From contig CAVVMA010000018.1 in assembly GCA_963749215.1 (NCBI GenBank), positions 238,922 through 302,921 of the forward strand: a stretch of 64,000 nt of DNA. The letters run 5' to 3'. This document shows, piece after piece, positions 19,496-31,274 of this stretch (the first letter of the stretch is position 1; each line of letters opens with the position of its first letter). The notes under the pieces were generated by a model. The model was not told the origin of the DNA. It searched no databases and saw only the letters and a program-made list of their open reading frames with translations. The position numbers were made by a program, and so were the translations under genes. The stretch is from an uncultured delta proteobacterium (lineage in GTDB: Bacteria; Desulfobacterota; Binatia; Binatales; Binataceae).

Positions 19496-20647
19496 TTAGA
19501 CGCCGGCCTGGAGTTGGAGTAGTTCCAGCGTCACCTCGGCGGTCGCGATCATATCTTTCACGTCGAGCCATTCGCGCAGCGTGTGAATATCGCGCATGCC
19601 GGTGCCCAGGTTCGCGACCACCATGCCGCGCTGATTGAGGATGTTGGCGTCGCATCCGCCGCCCATCGCCTCGGGCTTCACCACCCGACCCGCGCGCCGC
19701 GCCGCCTCGACAACCTTGCGCACGATCGGCGCGTCGTCGGGGACATTCATCGCTTCGTACTCGGGCGCGGCCTTGTAGTCGAGCTTGGCCTCGAAACGCT
19801 GCCCCTCGATCGTGACGCTCGCCTTGGCGACCGCCTGCTTGAAGCAATCGACCATGTGCTCGACCTGGGCGGTCAGCTTGGCGTTGTCGCGCGAGCGGGC
19901 CTCGCCGCGCACGATCACTTCGTTGGGTACGATGTTGAGCGCGCGGCCGCCCTCGATTCGTCCGAGGTTGGCGGTGGTTTCGTGATCGATCCGCCCCAGT
20001 CGCATCGCCGCGATCGCCTCGGCCGCCACCTTGATCGCGGAAATCCCGCGTTCCGGCGCCATCCCGGCGTGCGCCTCCAGCCCTTTGACCGTGAAGCTCA
20101 CGACGTACGCGCCCGGCGCGCGCACGAACAGGTAGCCGGGCGAGTCGCTGTCGTAGACCAGTCCCTCGCGCGCCTCGATCAGGCCGAGGTCGAGGTAGCG
20201 GGCGCCGAGCAGGCCGACCTCTTCGCAAATCGTGAAGACCACGTCGATCGGCCCGTGCGCGATGTCGCTCTCGCGCAATCGATGGAGCACTTCGCAAATG
20301 ATCGCACATCCGGACTTGTCGTCTCCGCCGAGCACGGTGCTGCCGTCGGTCCTTATGATATCGCCCTCGACGATCGGCTTGACGCCCTCGCCGGGCACGA
20401 CGGTGTCCATGTGGGCGCAGAGCAGAATCGGAGGTGCACCCTTCACCTTGCCGGGAATGCGGCCGATCAGGTTGCCGGTGTTGCCCTTGACGCGCTCGCC
20501 GGCGCCGTCGAACTTGCAAGCCGCGCCACAGGCTTCGAGCTCGCGCTGGAGCCGAAGCGCGACCTCGCGCTCGCGCCGCGATAGAGAATCGATCTGGACC
20601 AGTTCGAGGAAGAGATTCTTCAGGCGATCATTGTTGACAGTTGCCAT
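19496..20647 (-). CDS. M20-family metallopeptidase (tripeptidase/PepT-like)
   Basis: LVQIDSLSRRE...LLCAHMDTVVPG...VLGGDDKSGCAII...VFTICEEVGLLGA...RIEGG. Start at the internal ATG at 20647. Confidence 0.85.
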   Translation of the reverse strand: MATVNNDRLKNLFLELVQIDSLSRREREVALRLQRELEACGAACKFDGAGERVKGNTGNLIGRIPGKVKGAPPILLCAHMDTVVPGEGVKPIVEGDIIRTDGSTVLGGDDKSGCAIICEVLHRLRESDIAHGPIDVVFTICEEVGLLGARYLDLGLIEAREGLVYDSDSPGYLFVRAPGAYVVSFTVKGLEAHAGMAPERGISAIKVAAEAIAAMRLGRIDHETTANLGRIEGGRALNIVPNEVIVRGEARSRDNAKLTAQVEHMVDCFKQAVAKASVTIEGQRFEAKLDYKAAPEYEAMNVPDDAPIVRKVVEAARRAGRVVKPEAMGGGCDANILNQRGMVVANLGTGMRDIHTLREWLDVKDMIATAEVTLELLQLQAGV

Positions 20648-20737
20648 TGGGAGCCACCAGCAGAACAGGTTCGCGCAAGTCGTAGCGCGACACAATGGCG
20701 ACGGCGCTGGTGCTTGAGAACCGCAAACGCAAAGGGT

Positions 20738-22874: not shown

Positions 22875-23642
22875 TCAGTACGCGACGCTTTTCCGCGTGG
22901 CGGCGATCAGCCGCTCGATTTCTTCCTCGCTGAAACCGGCCAGCAGGCGCGCCTCTATGGCGATCGTGATAAACGGACCGGCGTCGGTCTTGACGTCTTC
23001 GCGCGCGCGACGGCCGCCGCCGAAGTTGAACATCTCGTCGATCCGATCCTGGAAATCCAGCGCCCGCTTGAGCCGCTCGGGATCGCCCTCGGTCAGCTTG
23101 CGCATCCATTGCGAGCCCATCCGGACGTGGGTGATTTCGTCGGCCAGCACGTAGTCCACCGCGCGCTCGATAACCTCGTCGCCGTTATGCTGCGCGATCC
23201 TGATTAGCTGCTCGAAGACGTTGCAGGCCAGACCCTCCAGCCCGCGATTGATTCCCGCCACGCGCGCAGCCGGATCTTCGGCCTGCGTGCATCGCCAGAG
23301 GATTTCGGTCTCGGTGTACTCGCCGGCATAGCCGCCGAGATATTCGAGCAGGCGCTGGAAGATTTCGGCATGGCGCGATTCGTCCCATACCTGGCGCGCC
23401 ATGTCGAGCTGGAACTCCCACGGCGCGTCGGGAAAGTCGAACAGCGTCCGTCCCGCGGCCTCCATCGCCTGCACCTCGCCGGTGTAGATTCCATGCAGTC
23501 GCGCGCGCAGCGCCTCCTCGTCGAATGGAATGACTCGCCCGTCCAGCGCCTGTGCTTCGCGAATCTCGCGAGCCTGACGGCCGCGCAGCAGCACGAAGCG
23601 ATCCTCGCGAGCCAGCTTGTGCACCGGTATGCATCTTTGCAT
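22875..23642 (-). CDS. Ferritin-like di-iron-carboxylate protein, DUF455-like, paralog B
   Basis: 255 aa. Ligand-like pattern GEVQAME / WDESRHAE / GLEGLACNV / ADEITHVRMG (E, ExxH, E, ExxH), reminiscent of the DUF455/MiaE clan. Confidence 0.7.
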   Translation of the reverse strand: MQRCIPVHKLAREDRFVLLRGRQAREIREAQALDGRVIPFDEEALRARLHGIYTGEVQAMEAAGRTLFDFPDAPWEFQLDMARQVWDESRHAEIFQRLLEYLGGYAGEYTETEILWRCTQAEDPAARVAGINRGLEGLACNVFEQLIRIAQHNGDEVIERAVDYVLADEITHVRMGSQWMRKLTEGDPERLKRALDFQDRIDEMFNFGGGRRAREDVKTDAGPFITIAIEARLLAGFSEEEIERLIAATRKSVAY

Positions 23643-23696
23643 GGTGATGAGTCCTCTTTCTGCTTTCGCCGGGCTTGCCTTGGTGGTGTTTGCGGC

Positions 23697-24497
23697 TCAG
23701 TAAGCAGCGCTGCGCGCTGCTGCCCTGACGATACGCTCGATTTCCTCTTCAGTGAAGCCGGCCAGCAGGCGTGCGTCTTTTGCGATTGTTAACGTGGCGT
23801 CGAACTGGATTTCCTTTTCGGCCACCCGCTGCGGCACCTGGCGTGCATCTTCCTGGGTGGTGCGTCCGCCGTTGAAGTTGAACAGGTTGTCGATATTGGC
23901 CTGGAAGTCCTGCGCCCGCTTGAGCCGCTCGGGATCGCCCTCGGTCAGCTTGCGCATCCATTGCGAGCCCATCCGGACGTGCGTGATCTCGTCCGCCAGC
24001 ACATAATCGACCGCGCGCTCGATCACCGGGTCGCCCATCTTTTGCGCGAGCCGGATTATCTGCTCGAAGACGTTGCAAGCGAGCCCTTCAAGTCCGCGAT
24101 TGATCCCGGCTACGCGGCAGGCCGGGTCGTCGACCTGCGTGCACGACCAGAGGACTTCGCTCTCGGGAAATTCGCCCAGATACGAACCGACGTACTCGAG
24201 CAGCTTCATATAGATTTCGGCGTGGCGCGACTCGTCCCATACCTGGCGCGCCATGTCGAGCTGGAACTCCCATGGCGCCTCGGGGAAATCGAACAGCGAG
24301 CGTCCCGCCGCTTCCATTGCCTGGATCTCGCCCGCGCAGATACCGTGCAGGCGGCCCTTGAGGAAGTCATCTTCGTACGGCATCGCGTTGAACGGGAGCA
24401 GCTTCTGGTCCAGGCGCGCCTGCTGAAGATCTTCGAGCGGAACGAGGATGTGATTCTCGGAACGGGCGAGTTTGTCAACCGGGATGAATTTCTGCAT
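23697..24497 (-). CDS. Ferritin-like di-iron-carboxylate protein, DUF455-like, paralog A
   Basis: 266 aa. GEIQAME / WDESRHAE / GLEGLACNV / ADEITHVRMG. Core nearly identical to paralog B, with a 10-aa C-terminal insertion. Confidence 0.7.
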   Translation of the reverse strand: MQKFIPVDKLARSENHILVPLEDLQQARLDQKLLPFNAMPYEDDFLKGRLHGICAGEIQAMEAAGRSLFDFPEAPWEFQLDMARQVWDESRHAEIYMKLLEYVGSYLGEFPESEVLWSCTQVDDPACRVAGINRGLEGLACNVFEQIIRLAQKMGDPVIERAVDYVLADEITHVRMGSQWMRKLTEGDPERLKRAQDFQANIDNLFNFNGGRTTQEDARQVPQRVAEKEIQFDATLTIAKDARLLAGFTEEEIERIVRAAARSAAY

Positions 24498-24535
24498 GGT
24501 CTCTTCTCCTGCGGCTTTTTGAAAAACCCGTAAAA

Positions 24536-24582
24536 CCCCTCTCTTATCTCCCCCGCGGGGGGAGAAGGTTAAGGAAGGGAGT
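24536..24582. repeat. Short degenerate member of the structured repeat family
   Basis: CCCCTCTCTTATCTCCCCCGCGGGGGGAGAAGGTTAAGGAAGGGAG, in the 101-nt gap inside the operon. Confidence 0.5.
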
Positions 24583-24598
24583 TACTCACTCCTCTACG

Positions 24599-24991
24599 TC
24601 ATTTCGTCCAGGCCGAGCGGCGGCCGGTTAGACTTTTCGCTTCCCAGATCATCCAGCGGCCTTCGTGTTCGCCGAGCCTGACCTGGATCAGAATCGGCGC
24701 GGCGCCCGGCCCGATGATTCGGGCCTTGACGTAGTAGTGTCGATTGGCGCGGGCCTGCGCGACGATTTCATGTCGATCATACAGGCCCGCGCGGACGCCT
24801 TGGGCAAGCCCGCCCGCCTCGGCCCGCGCCCGCTCCATCGCCATCGCTTCGAGTCCGATACGATCGCCCGCGGCGATCAGCTCCAGCACGCGTTCGGCGG
24901 CCGCGGTCATCTCGGCCGGCACCGGGCTCCGCTGCGCGATCGGCTGCGGACCCATCACGTTGGCGCGGTTGCCGAGATCAGGCATTGCCAT
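24599..24991 (-). CDS. Hypothetical 130-aa protein (paralog of 24978..25370)
   Basis: C-terminal half YDRHEIVAQARANRHYYVKARIIGPGAAPILIQVRLGEHEGRWMIWEAKSLTGRRSAW aligns with FDSFELLARAKIGFQQVAKIRWTSRDGQPVLLQIRWGQQADRNWKILNVEDLTVKRSPW of its neighbour. Confidence 0.6.
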   Translation of the reverse strand: MAMPDLGNRANVMGPQPIAQRSPVPAEMTAAAERVLELIAAGDRIGLEAMAMERARAEAGGLAQGVRAGLYDRHEIVAQARANRHYYVKARIIGPGAAPILIQVRLGEHEGRWMIWEAKSLTGRRSAWTK

Positions 24992-25370
24992 TCCTGGGAC
25001 GCATAAGAGCGGCGAGCGGCGGTATATCGGCCCACGGCGATCGCTTGACGGTCAAGTCCTCGACGTTGAGGATCTTCCAGTTTCGATCGGCCTGCTGACC
25101 CCATCGGATCTGGAGCAGGACTGGCTGCCCGTCCCGCGAGGTCCATCGAATCTTCGCGACTTGCTGAAAGCCGATTTTGGCGCGCGCCAGCAACTCGAAC
25201 GAGTCGAACGGGCGCTTCGGCTCGGCCGCAGCCATCGCGGCGCGATGACTCTCAATTCCGGGCTCGGCAACCATCCGCTCGGCGCCGTCGCGATCGCCGG
25301 CCAGAAAGGCCCGCGCGTACGCCTCAATATCGCGGTCGAGCTCGGGGATAGGTGTGCGCTTGATCGTCAA
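24978..25370 (-). CDS. Hypothetical 130-aa protein (paralog of 24599..24991)
   Basis: Likely TTG start at 25370, overlapping the upstream TGA (TTGA). The upstream part of ORF 24978..25463 is Arg-rich. I recognise no known domain. Confidence 0.6.
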   Translation of the reverse strand: MTIKRTPIPELDRDIEAYARAFLAGDRDGAERMVAEPGIESHRAAMAAAEPKRPFDSFELLARAKIGFQQVAKIRWTSRDGQPVLLQIRWGQQADRNWKILNVEDLTVKRSPWADIPPLAALMRPRNGNA

Positions 25371-25984
25371 CTGCGTCCGAGCCTCGCGGGCTCTTCTTGT
25401 TTGTCGGCGAAGCCGGTCACGCCACCCGAGGCGGCCAGCGCTTCGTCGAGTTGTGCTTCCCATTGCGACGCGCGGCGATGCTTCTCCGCCGAATCGAGCA
25501 GATCGGCGAGCAGCACCGAACCGCGCTCGACGTGGCGCTTCTCCTCATCGACCAGCCGGGCCAGAATCCTGAGCGTCGGCGGCTCGTAGACCGGGTTGGC
25601 GGCCTCGATATGCGCGCTGTAATGGGAAATCAGATGGGGTTTCAGCACGCGGTAGATTCCGACCAGCCGCTCGATAGTGTCCTCCCACTCTTCCTTGTCC
25701 TCGATCATATTCATGAAGGTGACGAAAGCCGGGTTGGGCGGCTTGGAGACCTGGGCCTGGCTGCGCAGCTCGCCCAGGCGCTTGCCGAAAGCGTCGGCGT
25801 GCAGCGCGTCCTCGTAGACTTGGCGCGCCATTTCGAGCTTGACCTGCAGCTCCGGCGTAAGCGCGATCCAGCCCGCCATCATGCGCATCATGCGCTCTTC
25901 GGCGTAGCGGTAGTTCATGATGTAAGTGGCGCTCTGGCGGACGCTGTAGACGCCGTCCATCGTGCGTCGATCGTAAAATGCCAT
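25367..25984 (-). CDS. All-helical ferritin-like protein (third putative di-iron component)
   Basis: 205 aa. YAEERMMRMMAGW, ARQVYEDALHADAFGKRL, HIEAANPVYEPP, LVDEEKRHVERG: carboxylate/His motifs spaced as in four-helix-bundle oxygenase subunits (PaaA/PaaC-like feel). Confidence 0.55.
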   Translation of the reverse strand: MAFYDRRTMDGVYSVRQSATYIMNYRYAEERMMRMMAGWIALTPELQVKLEMARQVYEDALHADAFGKRLGELRSQAQVSKPPNPAFVTFMNMIEDKEEWEDTIERLVGIYRVLKPHLISHYSAHIEAANPVYEPPTLRILARLVDEEKRHVERGSVLLADLLDSAEKHRRASQWEAQLDEALAASGGVTGFADKQEEPARLGRS

Positions 25985-26015
25985 CGATAAAAACTCCCGC
26001 GGTCTCCTCTGTGCT

Positions 26016-26684
26016 CTACGCTCCGGCGCGATTTGGTTTGGGCGCGTCCGCGGCCTCACTCAGGCCGGGCGCGAAGAAGCGGCCCTGGACGATCGCTGCG
26101 ATCTCGCGCCAGTAGGTTTCCTTGGCGGTGTCGCGCAGCAGGCCGGCGCCCATCGCCCATCCGGCGCACAGCATATGAACCGCTTCGACCACGCTTTTGA
26201 GATCATCGAACTGAATCACGCCGCGCCGCCGTCCGCGTTCGAGCACGTCGGCGACCACGCCGGTGTATCCTTCGCGGACTCGCTCGAAGGTGGCGCGATA
26301 GCCGGCGCGGCGCGCGAGATAGCGGACCTCGTGATGGAGCACGGTGAAGGCCTCGCGATAGCGGTCGATTACGTCCAGCGTCGCGCGCATCACTTCGAGC
26401 AGCTCGCGGCGCGGATCGCCGCCGGTGCGCTCGCGGATTCCGGGCAGGGCCTCGGTCAGTTCGGCGACCATCGATTCGGCCAGCAGCGCGAGAATGTCGT
26501 CCTTGCTCTGGAGATAGAGATAGATCGAGCCCGCCGCGATCCCGGCTTCGAGCGCAATCTCCTTGACGGTCGCTTCATGGAACGACTTGCGCTCGAGCAC
26601 GCGACACGCCGCGAGAAATATCTGGCGTCGCCGCGCGCGCACGAGCGACTCGTCCTGCGGCGGAGTCTTCAGCGCTTCGGCCAT
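26016..26684 (-). CDS. TetR-family transcriptional regulator
   Basis: N-terminal HTH RRRQIFLAACRVLERKSFHEATVKEIALEAGIAAGSIYLYLQSKDDIL. First gene of the minus-strand operon. Confidence 0.9.
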   Translation of the reverse strand: MAEALKTPPQDESLVRARRRQIFLAACRVLERKSFHEATVKEIALEAGIAAGSIYLYLQSKDDILALLAESMVAELTEALPGIRERTGGDPRRELLEVMRATLDVIDRYREAFTVLHHEVRYLARRAGYRATFERVREGYTGVVADVLERGRRRGVIQFDDLKSVVEAVHMLCAGWAMGAGLLRDTAKETYWREIAAIVQGRFFAPGLSEAADAPKPNRAGA

Positions 26685-26741
26685 TTGGAGTAGAAAACGG
26701 CGCCAACGACAGTGGCGCACCGTCTCAATCCGAGCGTATTG

Positions 26742-26755
26742 AATGAACGTTCATT
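26742..26755. promoter_or_regulatory. Perfect 14-bp palindrome AATGAACGTTCATT, candidate TetR operator
   Basis: Lies 58-71 nt upstream of the tetR start and ~110 nt upstream of the divergent DDN-type reductase gene, in an AT-richer patch. Confidence 0.55.
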
Positions 26756-26864
26756 TTGTCAAGCTCCGATCGCGATCACCGGATAGAAGAACCCGGTTTC
26801 GCGTCGCGGGGTGCGGCGGGTTATTCTGGCCCGCGCAGTCCCTAATCGGCGCGAGGTGAAGAGG

Positions 26865-27311
26865 ATGGCTTCAGACAAGAGTTTCGAAAAGGAAACCGCT
26901 TTCGAGCGGATCGCGAATCGGACCTTCGGCGGGCTGGTGCGTTTGGGACTTGGATTCGGCCACAACTATCTGCTCGAAGTGCGCGGGCGCAAAAGCGGCA
27001 AGGTCTTTTCGACGCCGGTCAACCTGCTCGAGTACAACGGCAGGCGCTATCTGATCGCGAGTCGCGGGGAGACTCAATGGGCCCGCAACGCGCGCGCGGC
27101 AGGGCGCGTCACGCTCCGCAAGGGAATTCGCCGCCGTGACTACAAGGTCCGCGAACTCCCGGTCTCCGAGCGGCCGCCGATCCTCAAAGAATTCCTCGAT
27201 CGATTCGCGACGAGCGTGCAGCGCTTCCACGCGGTGCCGAAGGGCTCGCCGGCCGAGGCTCACGTTGCCGATGCGCCCCGCCATCCGGTGTTCGAGTTGA
27301 TTGAAGGTTGA
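26865..27311 (+). CDS. Deazaflavin (F420H2)-dependent nitroreductase/DDN-family oxidoreductase
   Basis: LLEVRGRKSGKVFSTPVNLLEYNGRRYLIASRGETQWARNARAAGRVTLRKG, the split-barrel DDN/DUF385 pattern. Start at the internal ATG at 26865. Confidence 0.75.
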   Translation: MASDKSFEKETAFERIANRTFGGLVRLGLGFGHNYLLEVRGRKSGKVFSTPVNLLEYNGRRYLIASRGETQWARNARAAGRVTLRKGIRRRDYKVRELPVSERPPILKEFLDRFATSVQRFHAVPKGSPAEAHVADAPRHPVFELIEG

Positions 27312-28369: not shown

Positions 28370-29147
28370 TCAACGAAATAAGTCGGCTTCGGCCGGCCGA
28401 ATCAGCGCCTTCGCGCCGCCCTCGGACGGATCGTATTTGTAGCCGCGCACGAGCACGGCCGGGACCGCCTCGGCCTTGCCCATCAGCAAGCCCGCCGCCG
28501 ACGCGATCTCGTCGGCGATCGCGACGACCGTATGATGGAGTTCGCGGCCGGCCAAATCGGTGGTGCCGCGCAGATCGAGCATCGGGTTCATGCCGGCGAT
28601 TCCGAGGCAAATTTCGGTGAGGCCGTCGCGCCACGGACGCCCGAAGGTATCGGTAACGAGCACCGCGACCTCGACGCCGGTCAATCGCTTCAACTCGGCG
28701 CGGATTCGCGCCGCCGAGGCGTCGGGATCGACCGGCAGCAGAATCGCGCAGTCGTCGCTTCATGCTGTTCGACTCGTCCACTCCCGCATTGGCGCAGACC
28801 CATCCGGGCCCGGTTTCGACGATAAGCACCGCGCGATCCATCCGCACGATCCGGCTGGTCTGCCTGAGCACGATTTCGACCGCACGCGGATCCTTGTCCC
28901 ATCGCCGGGCGAAGTTGATCGCCAGCTCCGAAGGCTCGACCTCCCTGAGATCAACCAGCCGGCCCTCGGACTTCGAGATTACCTTCTGGCAGATCACAAC
29001 GATATCGCCGTGAGCCAGGGTAAGCCCGCCCTTTTCCAGCGCTCGCGTCAGAAGCCCGGCGAGATCGTCGCCCTGCTTGACCAGAGGCATCCCCTCAATC
29101 GGGGTCAGGGTCAGGGTAGCCACAAGAAGCTTAAGCCTACACCTCAA
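28370..29147 (-). pseudogene. cofE: F420-0:gamma-glutamyl ligase CofE with one +1 frame change near 28755-28762
   Basis: N-terminal part (LTPIEGMPLVKQGDDLAGLL...ICQKVISKSEGR...VCANAGVDESNS) is in the frame of ORF ..29147. The continuation DDCAILLPVDPDASAARIRAELKRLTGVEVAVLVTDTFGRPWRDG... is in the frame of ORF 28370..28693. Confidence 0.8.
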
Positions 29148-30093
29148 GGGCGCGCAGAACCACGTCCGCGAGCCGGGCCGCGCGCGCCGGAGTACTCATA
29201 ATAGTATCGGCGGCCACGGCCCTCATGCCAAGCTTTTCGATCTGGGCAACGTAGCGCCAATCGACCCTGTCGAGCACGAAGACGCTCGCGATGTCGCGAT
29301 ATAGTTTAGCGACGCCGAGCGGCGAGACCTCATGGCCGAGCCCGCGCATCATCTTGTCGGCGGGTCCCTTGATAGTTTTGCCGCCGACGATCGGGCTGAT
29401 CGCGGCGACGCGCGCGCGCACCGACCTGAGCGCCGCGCGCATCCTGCGCAGCGCGAGTATCGGGCCGATCGAGACGAAGGGATTCGACGGCGCCAGGATC
29501 GCCGCGGCACAGGCCCTGATCGCCGCGATCGCCGCGGGCAGCGGATGAGCGCGAGCGATGCCGCGGAGCTCGATTCGCTCGACGCGTCCGCGCGCGCGGC
29601 CGCGCACGAAATATTCCTGGAAAGGAATCGCCGGGCGGCCGCGCAGCTTCACGAAAGTGCGCACGCGGTCGTCGCTCATCGGAAGGATTCTCGCCCGCAC
29701 TCCGAAGCGCCCGGCGATCTCGCGCGTGATTCGGCTCAGCGCGACGCCGCGGCTCAATTGCTCGGTGCGGAACAGATGGGTGGCGAGGTCCCGATCGCCG
29801 AGCGCGAACCATCCGGGGCCGTAGAAGCGCTCGAGCGCACCGAGCGCGTTGAAGCTCTCCTGGTCGAGGCCCCATCCGTGCGCGCGGGAGACCACTTGGG
29901 CGAGCGTGTAGATAACGGTGTCGATATCGGGTGATACATGGAGCCCGTAGAAGTGTTCGTCGTCGCCGGTATTGACGATGACGGTCAGGCGGCCGGGATC
30001 GACCCGGCGGACCAGGCCGCGCAGGAATTTAGCCGCACCCACTCCCCCCGCCAGCGTGATGATCGTGCTGGTGTTCGATGGGCCGCGCTCCAT
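29137..30093 (-). CDS. cofD: 2-phospho-L-lactate transferase
   Basis: IITLAGGVGAAKFLRGL...IVNTGDD...GLHVSPDIDTVIYTL...GDRDLATHL...SNPFVSIGPIL. Start at the ATG at 30093. Confidence 0.9.
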   Translation of the reverse strand: MERGPSNTSTIITLAGGVGAAKFLRGLVRRVDPGRLTVIVNTGDDEHFYGLHVSPDIDTVIYTLAQVVSRAHGWGLDQESFNALGALERFYGPGWFALGDRDLATHLFRTEQLSRGVALSRITREIAGRFGVRARILPMSDDRVRTFVKLRGRPAIPFQEYFVRGRARGRVERIELRGIARAHPLPAAIAAIRACAAAILAPSNPFVSIGPILALRRMRAALRSVRARVAAISPIVGGKTIKGPADKMMRGLGHEVSPLGVAKLYRDIASVFVLDRVDWRYVAQIEKLGMRAVAADTIMSTPARAARLADVVLRALEV

Positions 30094-31274
30094 TGGGCGC
30101 CTTTCTTCCGTAGAGCTTCCTGTAGGTCGTTGTGCGCTCGACCGCGACGCGTCCAATCTCACGCGCTTTTTCCTCGATCACATCTACGGGCACGAACTCT
30201 CCGGCGGTGCCGCCGGCCTGCGCCGTGATGCTCTCCTCCATCAGCGTGCCCGAGAAGTCGTTGCATCCGGTCTTCAGCGTGATCGCCGCGAGATCGACGC
30301 CGAGCTTCACCCACGAAGTCTGGAGATTGTCGATCCAGCCGCGCAGGAACAGCCGCGAGAACGCATACATCCTGAGATCCGGCAGTCCGGTCTCCGATGG
30401 CGTCACCAGTCCCTTGCGATAGAGCACGGTGTTCTCGTGGATAAAGCGCAGCGGCACGAATTCGGTGATGCCAGCGGGTCTGCTTCTGAATATCGCGGAG
30501 CAGGCTCAGATGGTTGACCACGTGGCGCGGACTTTCGAGATGGCCATACATGATCGTCGAGGTGGTCGGCACGCCGAGCGAATGCGCGGTCGTGATGATA
30601 TCCACCCACGCGGCCACATCGACCTTTTTGTGGCTTAAGATTTCGCGGACGCTGTCGTCGAGAATTTCCGCCGCGGTGCCGGGAATCGATCCAAGTCCGT
30701 TGTCACGGAGCATCGCGATATACTCGCGATATTCCATCTGCACGCGCCGCGCGCCGTACATGATCTCCATCGGCGAGAAGGCGTGGACGTGGATCTCGGG
30801 GAATTCGCTCTTAATCGCGCGCAGCAGGTCGCGATACTTGAACGGCGGCATGTCGGGATTGATCCCGCCCTGCATGCAGATTTCGGTTGCGCCCCGGGCC
30901 TGCGCGTCCGCGACCTTTGCCAGGATGACGTCGTCGCCATGGTCGTAGGCGTCGGATTCCCACTTCTGGCGCTTGAAGCCGCAGAACTGGCATCCGACGA
31001 AACAGATATTGGTGAAGTTGATATTGCGATTGACGACGTAGGTTACTTCGTCGCCGACATCTTCGGCGCGCGCGAGGTCCGCGCACTTGATGACGGCGCG
31101 CAGGTCGTCGCCCTCGGCGGTGTACAGCGCGAGGCCCTCTTCGGCGGTCAGCTCACCGCGCCGGAGGCTCTTTTCGAGCGCGGCGCGCACGCTCGCCGAC
31201 GCCGGGCGCATCAGGACGTTGAGCGGCGTCGCCTCGATCTCGTTCACATAGCCGCGAAGTTCAGCGAGGTTCAC
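30029..31274 (-). pseudogene. cofH: FO synthase subunit 2 (radical SAM) CofH with one +1 frame change near 30474
   Basis: NINFTNICFVGCQFCGF (CxxxCxxC)...CMQGGINP...LLRDIQKQT, then the frame switches to (A)GITEFVPLRFIHENTVLY...NDFSGTLMEE (ORF 30029..30457). The 3' end overlaps cofD by ~65 nt. Confidence 0.8.

Follow-up and report, generated by a model that had tools for sequence, protein, structure and literature searches.

Which enzyme, if it is a single enzyme, is encoded by an operon whose two largest ferritin-like proteins belong to a family of no assigned function? The question is raised by a 64-kb stretch of DNA from an uncultured soil bacterium (contig CAVVMA010000018.1; hereafter the window, to whose 64,000 nucleotides all coordinates refer unless another locus is named), the closest homologues of which carry source names that give Candidatus Binataceae. 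Six co-directional genes on its minus strand, tetR, E, D, C, B and A in order of transcription, had been described from inspection of the DNA (the sequence-only reading) as a heteromeric di-iron system, and all six open reading frames (ORFs) were found at the coordinates then assigned. A and B fall in DUF455 (PF04305, COG2833), a large family of 1,417 clusters at 50% identity with E-value ≤ 1e-3, which also occurs in eukaryotes. No function is assigned to DUF455 in Pfam, NCBIfam or the literature searched, and literature searches under DUF455, COG2833, PF04305, IPR007402 and At1g06240 gave no functional study. The most likely product of the operon is a multi-subunit iron enzyme, as yet uncharacterised and built on the di-iron theme of a catalytic subunit joined to a degenerate one.

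Two DUF455 proteins and their ligand-degenerate paralogue

Genes B (23697-24497, minus strand; 266 amino acids, aa) and A (22875-23642, minus strand; 255 aa) encode DUF455 ferritin-like proteins. They had been called DUF455-like paralogs, which is borne out by Pfam scores of 87.2 bits for A and 92.8 bits for B against a gathering threshold of 34.3 bits, and by a mutual identity of 64%. The complete E/ExxH/E/ExxH set noted in both proteins (GE(V/I)QAME, DESRH, GLEGLA and DEITH) is present, and its six ligands, E57, E89, H92, E137, E170 and H173, are conserved in 111 of 111 DUF455 genes from 87 loci, together with the second-shell residues R84, W87, D88, R91 and D169. The same six ligands, along with A83, W87, R91, D169 and P189, are invariant across 20 aligned sequences, down to 27% identity. 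The WDExRH and ADExxH motifs are the (D/E)ExxH pair of soluble di-iron-oxo enzymes. On this pattern A and B are most likely di-iron carboxylate proteins, with the conserved ligand set carried on four core helices; an AlphaFold model of B places four long core helices at 43-70, 76-103, 125-153 and 157-184, with a mean predicted local distance difference test score (pLDDT) of 64.9.

The B model was built on a shallow alignment of close homologues only, and its fold matches are therefore generic: Foldseek returned aldehyde-deformylating oxygenase (ADO) at the top, followed by bacterioferritin and ferritins (E-value about 6e-3), with Dps-like proteins also among the matches. In the PDB the DUF455 profile matches the sequence of symerythrin best (E-value 2.4e-4), and further profile matches are to R2-like ligand-binding oxidase, ADO and bacterioferritin; PDB sequence and profile searches with A/B, E and C found no solved relative nearer than superfamily level. 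A rough neighbour-joining tree, midpoint-rooted, sets A and B as sister clades, with B a Binataceae-specific paralogue. A is 57-63% identical to the DUF455 proteins of Rokubacteria-type loci, against 50-58% for B, the sole reversal being an Entotheonellaceae locus (L032) whose DUF455 protein is not closer to A.

The sequence-only reading had counted three ferritin-like di-iron proteins, and the third of these, E (25367-25984, minus strand; 205 aa), does not survive as such. No Pfam family reaches threshold with E, for which DUF455 scores 13.8 bits; E matches B by BLASTP with an E-value of 4e-10, and the E family aligns to DUF455 by HHalign with 97.7% probability (E-value 1.9e-12). Both motifs reported in helical context, EDALH and EEKRH, are indeed present in Binataceae E, but the family to which it belongs has no conserved metal site. 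Among 69 E-family genes the counterpart of E89 varies (D, C, N, L, G, T and others), the equivalent of H92 is His in 48, that of E137 has become Lys in 59, and that of E170 is Glu in 46 and Thr in 16. Since its family has lost most of the ligand positions, E is, by this census, a divergent and ligand-degenerate DUF455 paralogue, not a third di-iron protein, and we propose that it serves as a non-catalytic scaffold subunit. The family has conserved motifs of its own, K115-P116-H117 and a C-terminal GGVTG (residues 187-191 of E), the latter closing the domain in almost every member. The C-termini of A and B (22875-22880 and 23697-23702) likewise end in a conserved AY before the stop codon, and A265 and Y266 are invariant in Binataceae sequences; the terminal AY and the GGVTG motif may be subunit contact elements. 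Some Joint Genome Institute annotations label E '1,2-phenylacetyl-CoA epoxidase catalytic subunit'.

The remaining two proteins, D (24978-25370, minus strand; 130 aa, TTG start) and C, had been left without a recognised domain. Gene C, also on the minus strand, spans 24599-24991 with the start first assigned or 24599-24985 with the start supported by homologues; the latter is likelier because the homologues begin at MPDLG, and it gives a protein of 128 aa. C and D were correctly seen to be mutually homologous (30% identity, E-value 7e-12). The AlphaFold model of C (pLDDT 86.7) is a cone of three helices (24-38, 42-47 and 51-59) and four strands, and Foldseek matched it to NTF2-like proteins, SgcJ and ketosteroid isomerase with probability 1.0 and template-modelling scores of about 0.55-0.62. 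Judged from this model, C and D are NTF2-like, D being assigned through its homology to C; D also has a weak Pfam match to DUF4864, an NTF2-like family, and no sequence family reached threshold with C in library searches. The first 16 or so residues of C, MPDLGxRxNVMGPQPI, are nearly invariant (G5, R7, G12, P13, Q14 and I16 strictly so) and yet unstructured in the model, which suggests a docking peptide. Of the 182 homologues of C that were found, every one whose source name gives an organism is from Candidatus Binataceae, and D orthologues are present in all complete Binataceae loci.

Linkage, fusions and possible accessory subunits across phyla

A check of gene neighbourhoods showed that about 20 Binataceae species genomes, as well as further metagenome contigs, keep the complete tetR-E-D-C-B-A order, usually with pckG downstream and often with a DDN-type reductase gene nearby at varying distance. 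Outside the Binataceae, a genome scan, tblastn and profile searches found a DUF455 gene adjoining an E gene in more than 50 loci, from Methylomirabilota/Rokubacteria, Tectomicrobia/Entotheonellaceae, Verrucomicrobiia, Myxococcota, Gammaproteobacteria and Ilumatobacteraceae. The core is simpler there, consisting of a single DUF455 gene next to E. In about 22 of the 150 top representative clusters at 50% identity, and in 17 of 80 metagenome loci, the two are fused in one chain, which measures 400-550 aa in the former set, with the E domain N-terminal and the DUF455 domain C-terminal; the fusions among the representative clusters come from Bacteroidota, Polyangiaceae and Chloroflexota metagenome-assembled genomes (MAGs). 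In the fusions the DUF455 half retains all the ligands, whereas the E half does not.

A second kind of fusion joins E to an NTF2-like protein. In about 18 Rokubacteria/Methylomirabilota loci the E reading frame runs on for 128-140 aa, and six of these tails match the C profile; in the E tail of other Rokubacteria loci weak matches to C or D were obtained by tblastn. Elsewhere in the Rokubacteria, and in Tectomicrobia, NTF2 is encoded by an adjacent gene of its own.

A third partner, a 2x[4Fe-4S] ferredoxin with two CxxCxxCxxxCP motifs and matches to Fer4 dicluster families, lies between DUF455 and E, in the order DUF455-ferredoxin-E and with tight or overlapping junctions, in seven metagenome loci (by their own coordinates, L129 3945-4268, L133 2326-2694, L135 1093-1449, L139 1098-1427, L144 690-1106, L153 1131-1466 and L155 8601-8942). 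The E proteins of this lineage are 32-38% identical to E. The inserted ferredoxins are 107-138 aa long and have a basic, helical C-terminal extension; GC content is about 0.66-0.69 in the three longer ferredoxin-bearing contigs for which it was computed.

Two DUF455 paralogues accompany one E in at least four lineages, in the orders E-DUF455-DUF455, DUF455-E-DUF455 and DUF455-E-n-DUF455, and, on the rough neighbour-joining tree, these arrangements apparently arose by independent, lineage-level duplications. In a census of neighbours outside the Binataceae, covering 133 clusters and 179 Pfam families, no family occurred in more than three clusters. Therefore, as far as gene order can tell, only the E-DUF455 pair itself is conserved, and its surroundings supply neither a pathway context nor a clue to the substrate.

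The proposal of a heteromeric di-iron complex under TetR thus stands in part. Adjacency, the E-DUF455 and E-NTF2 fusions and a footprinted operator (below) support it, but E is not a conserved di-iron protein. Taken together, the fusions, the linkage across phyla and the ferredoxin-bearing relative have strengthened the more general idea of a heteromeric metallo-enzyme.

Control, proposed mechanism and competing explanations

The first gene of the operon, tetR (26016-26684, minus strand), encodes a TetR-family repressor that matches Pfam TetR_N with an E-value of 4e-11 (42.9 bits against a 24-bit cut-off) and also TetR_C_24. Its closest solved relatives, at E-values of about 1e-9, are Bacillus FadR/YsiA (1vi0, 3whb), KstR2, B. 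halodurans FadR (5gp9) and Thermus FadR (3ang); its score with the NCBIfam FadR equivalog model, 59.6 bits, is below that model's 200-bit cut-off. The FadR proteins of Bacillus and Thermus sense acyl-CoA. Directly after a TTGACA hexamer in the intergenic region upstream of tetR, a perfect 14-bp palindrome, AATGAACGTTCATT (26742-26755), occurs once in the window, where 0.05 chance matches are expected. Its 12-bp core, ATGAACGTTCAT, has a single occurrence in every one of 19 Binataceae loci, upstream of the tetR match where positions were compared, and is absent from 68 other loci. This phylogenetic footprint marks the palindrome as a candidate TetR operator. On the other side of the palindrome, and divergent from tetR, the plus-strand gene at 26811-27311 encodes a DDN-type F420H2-dependent reductase (Pfam F420H2_quin_red, E-value 8e-9; TIGR00026, 52 bits, above cut-off), so that in this window the two genes have the palindrome-bearing region in common. 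Twelve Binataceae loci have a DDN gene about 0.3 to 6 kb from the cluster, whereas the loci compared outside the family have none near it; it is a possible co-regulated neighbour, and the suggested link to F420 amounts to an adjacency confined to Binataceae.

These data have led us to propose a model in which the operon's product is a soluble redox enzyme of the di-iron carboxylate kind, heteromeric and probably O2-activating (an oxygenase, oxidase or desaturase), a reading to which we give an even chance. A and B would be the catalytic subunits, each with a (D/E)ExxH-type two-iron site. E would pair with a DUF455 subunit as a pseudo-symmetric heterodimer, which is the stoichiometry that we infer for the core, and would have a scaffold or docking role like that of PaaC for PaaA. 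It would also anchor accessory subunits, NTF2-like in Binatia, Rokubacteria and Tectomicrobia and a ferredoxin in another lineage; in the operon described here C and D would attach to E, where they would bind a small ligand, probably a hydrophobic one, or present it. The Binataceae module would then have grown to two catalytic and two NTF2 paralogues under a FadR-like TetR. TetR would repress the operon, and probably also the divergent DDN gene, by binding at AATGAACGTTCATT until displaced by a small-molecule effector, for which an acyl-CoA-like compound is a weak guess.

Electrons would come from outside the operon. The sequence-only reading had placed the donor in trans, which is plausible given that the module of some distant relatives includes a ferredoxin gene, and by analogy with those relatives a ferredoxin would be the likeliest donor. 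The ferredoxin variant also argues for a metal centre that undergoes reduction in the course of turnover, a property that would suit an oxygenase, a desaturase or oxidase, and a peroxide reductase equally. A lipophilic or acyl-thioester substrate is weakly favoured because of the FadR-like repressor, the habit of NTF2 proteins of binding hydrophobic ligands, the likeness to ADO and desaturases, and scattered acyl-CoA genes near the module.

Among known systems, the PaaA/PaaC core of phenylacetyl-CoA epoxidase is the closest functional analogy. It too consists of a catalytic di-iron subunit and a homologue that has lost its ligands, with small accessory subunits; PaaABCDE acts on a CoA thioester, and the operon here has a FadR-like regulator. 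Unlike that enzyme, the accessory proteins here are NTF2-like and the catalytic subunit is duplicated. The operon is not a PaaABCDE system, as PaaA_PaaC (PF05138) scores 15.4, 16.4 and 13.2 bits for A, B and E against a 28.5-bit cut-off and no PaaB-, PaaD- or PaaE-like gene is in the cluster. MiaE and COQ7 models gave no match at E-value ≤ 1 (Pfam), and ribonucleotide-reductase R2 and rubrerythrin models fell below threshold for the operon proteins.

The next closest analogy is the alpha/beta pair of the bacterial multicomponent monooxygenases (soluble methane monooxygenase, toluene and phenol hydroxylases), which the architecture had been said to recall. Like the proposed enzyme, these have a homologous pair of ferritin-fold subunits, one of them iron-binding, and small subunits. 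The likeness proved to be only conceptual: the subunits here are half the size, the operon has no reductase or Rieske ferredoxin, and membership was rejected on the absence of Phenol_Hydrox, MmoB/DmpM and FAD/[2Fe-2S] reductase families from the six proteins at E-value ≤ 1 (Pfam). ADO and the acyl-ACP desaturases resemble A and B by the top fold match (to ADO) and by weak sequence matches; both are soluble di-iron enzymes whose electrons come from a free ferredoxin and whose substrates are fatty-acyl compounds. This similarity is at superfamily level only (E-values about 1e-2 to 1e-3), and neither enzyme, each being active as a monomer or homodimer, is known to have a degenerate partner. As for DUF455 itself, of which A and B are clear members, no description of the E partner, the fusions or the NTF2 and ferredoxin accessories was found.

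Several observations weigh against a di-iron oxygenase or a related O2-activating enzyme. The relatives with a ferredoxin gene share only about 30% identity with A and B; the neighbour census yields no conserved pathway context and no substrate clue, and the acyl-CoA genes beside some loci are anecdotal. The B monomer model is only moderately confident. The operon has no reductase or ferredoxin gene, as had been noted and as the ORF list and a Pfam scan of its six proteins confirm, the rest of the window not having been screened for one. Finally, symerythrin as the best PDB match and the bacterioferritin fold matches would suit a peroxidase or ferroxidase equally well.

The last point bears on the strongest rival, in which the proteins form a rubrerythrin- or symerythrin-like reductase of peroxide or O2 that protects against oxidative stress with ferredoxin electrons and acts on no organic substrate. 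Symerythrin and rubrerythrin are di-iron four-helix bundles reduced by small iron-sulfur proteins, a ferredoxin partner does occur in one lineage of the module, and the surrounding genes, mostly housekeeping and belonging to no conserved pathway, would be in keeping with such a role. However, the symerythrin match extends over one helix pair, no rubredoxin domain is present, and rubrerythrin models, with a cut-off of 22.8 bits, reach 13.6 bits. Instead of a peroxide sensor the operon has a FadR-like TetR as its regulator, and NTF2-like accessory subunits usually bind small organic molecules. An obligatory degenerate partner is, moreover, typical of oxygenases such as PaaAC and the multicomponent monooxygenases, whereas rubrerythrins are homodimers. 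We regard this explanation as unlikely, though deserving of consideration.

Iron storage or detoxification, by a ferritin- or Dps-like ferroxidase or an encapsulin cargo protein in place of an enzyme of metabolites, is very improbable. It draws on the fold matches to bacterioferritin, ferritin and Dps-like proteins and on weak matches to encapsulin-associated ferritin-like families (TIGR04535, E-values 0.018-0.038; EncB_fam, E-value 2.3e-4), but the latter amount to 14-21 bits against cut-offs of 125 (TIGR04535) and 90 (EncB). On these family scores, and with no shell gene seen beside any of the annotated loci examined, encapsulin cargo was rejected. A and B, at 255-266 aa and with long N- and C-terminal extensions, are also much larger than ferritin subunits, and iron storage would not account for a site-less paralogue as heterodimer partner, for the NTF2-like proteins or for control by TetR. 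That the genes are mere neighbours, with A and B independent DUF455 enzymes and E, C and D in unrelated roles, has little to commend it: solo DUF455 genes exist (L024, L027, L070, L074, L075, L077, L078 and L082-L087), and some MAGs hold one E-linked and one solo gene (L055/L075, L063/L086 and L056/L087), but single-chain E-DUF455 and E-NTF2 fusions occur in several phyla, and adjacency is kept across many phyla though the neighbourhoods are otherwise unconserved.

A wider form of the oxygenase model can be entertained, and we put it forward as a tentative idea that is rather more doubtful than the model itself. E-DUF455 would be an unrecognised, wide class of heteromeric, ferredoxin-dependent di-iron oxygenases, with catalytic DUF455 subunits, often two paralogues, mounted on a ligand-dead scaffold that accepts plug-in NTF2-like carriers or a 2x[4Fe-4S] ferredoxin. 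The Binataceae version would be induced through the FadR-like TetR by a lipophilic or acyl-CoA effector and could use carriers reduced by F420H2 and the DDN protein.

With these comparisons an orphan domain becomes a defined and reconstitutable system, comprising a ligand-dead paralogue, recurrent fusions and optional NTF2-like or ferredoxin subunits, and DUF455 function becomes experimentally tractable through a two-protein core that recurs in many bacterial phyla. They tell which proteins probably belong together, namely E with A and/or B, plus C and D; they point to a ferredoxin as the likely electron donor, and they offer, in TetR and its 14-bp candidate operator, a regulatory handle on the inducer and hence on the substrate. 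Should the chemistry prove new, the di-iron oxygenases would gain a branch in abundant uncultured soil phyla (Binatota, Methylomirabilota, Tectomicrobia and Myxococcota).

Operon layout and neighbouring genes

The junctions within the operon are as tight as had been read: a 31-nt gap separates tetR from E, the TTG start of D overlaps the stop codon of E (TTGA), and D and C overlap by 14 nt, or by 8 nt with the homologue-supported start of C. The other spacers measure 101 nt (C-B), 54 nt (B-A) and 122 nt (A-pckG). In comparisons with seven other Binataceae loci all six genes are under purifying selection, with ratios of nonsynonymous to synonymous substitution of 0.09-0.21 for A and B, 0.16-0.21 for E, 0.19-0.32 for tetR, 0.26-0.71 for C and D jointly and 0.32-0.71 for D. 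C and D diverge quickly between Binataceae loci, each keeping 39-53% identity, compared with 74-82% for A, B and E.

The sequence-only reading had ended the operon at a hairpin before pckG, which encodes a GTP-PEPCK (Pfam). This was not upheld: a 6-bp GC stem followed by UUUCGCC went uncalled by the terminator scan and folds no better than shuffled sequence (z = -0.22), and an intrinsic terminator after A was rejected. A GC-rich palindrome, CTCCCCCCGCGGGGGAG, lies at 24548-24564 in the C-B spacer (24498-24598), which is 101 nt long here and about 10-65 nt in the other Binataceae loci checked; as a structured hairpin it too was dismissed, its folding not being above shuffled (z = -1.5) and the element not being repeated in the window.

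Beyond pckG, the minus-strand ORF at 19496-20695 is a putative M20-peptidase-like gene. BLAST clustering of locus ORFs places M20-family genes some kilobases downstream of the module both in further Binataceae loci and in an unrelated lineage with fused E-DUF455; members lie at L096 15151-16377 and in L098, L126 and L134, and of these the L096 gene alone is Pfam-confirmed. M20 is a large family, and the recurrence may be coincidence.

At some loci the module has neighbours for an enoyl-CoA hydratase, acyl-CoA dehydrogenase, 4HBT thioesterase, WS/DGAT, acyl-CoA carboxylase or acyl-CoA synthetase. The neighbour census reduced this acyl-CoA or lipid theme to a weak lead. In Rokubacteria loci (L029, L033, L036 and others, at about 9.8-13.5 kb) an acyl-CoA carboxylase set directly follows the module and consists of a biotin carboxylase, a 71-aa ORF that looks like a biotinyl carrier by its sequence, a DinB-family protein and a carboxyltransferase. 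The module is preceded there by DNA polymerase IV, and further upstream stand putative genes whose ORFs read like HscA, cysteine desulfurase and serine acetyltransferase. With PEPCK encoded downstream of the module in Binataceae, a biotin carboxylase downstream of it in Rokubacteria, and some carbonic anhydrases (the iota class) having an NTF2 fold, a link to CO2 or bicarbonate would be conceivable; it was set aside.

In L095-L099 (e.g. L096 2174-16377) the fused E-DUF455 gene lies within a conserved, co-directional carbohydrate-catabolic cluster with a PfkB kinase, a GH38 mannosidase, a DeoC/LacD aldolase, a GFO/IDH/MocA oxidoreductase, an FAA-hydrolase family protein, an MR/MLE enolase-superfamily protein, GH3 and a DHO_dh-like protein. 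As a general theme the carbohydrate context was set aside, being confined to this one fused-form lineage. Elsewhere (L107, L114, L115 9980-10552 and L119 4895-7412) a conserved ORF of about 190 aa comes after the last DUF455 gene; in L119 it resembles an S24/S26 peptidase in sequence, has no Pfam match and directly precedes an asparagine synthase gene. In L108-L111 the ORF in this position belongs to a family of about 180-205 aa, the L109 member of which was scanned and has no Pfam match. None of the ORFs after the last DUF455 gene in the L107-L119 lineages resembles an NTF2-like protein.

On the other side of the operon, two genes of F420 biosynthesis appear to be frameshifted. In cofE (28370-29147, minus strand) the frame switches near 28,700, the N-terminal half (ending VCANAGVDESNS) and the C-terminal half (DDCAILLPVDPD, later LKRLTGVEVAVLVTDTFGRPWR) being in different frames, which taken singly would be either an indel error or a pseudogene. 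In cofH (30029-31274, minus strand) the switch is near 30,465, where HLSLLRDIQKQT gives way to GITEFVPLRFIHENT in another frame. The occurrence of such shifts in two genes so close together suggests indel errors of a long-read assembly; the genes of the operon itself, all six, are intact. An ORF that lies between cofE and the DDN gene, from 27339 to about 28330 (minus strand), reads in its 3' part like a polyprenyl-diphosphate synthase (LHDDIIDGG and FQMIDDLLD), and this ORF, together with the quinone-reductase type of its DDN neighbour, hints at an isoprenoid-quinone theme.

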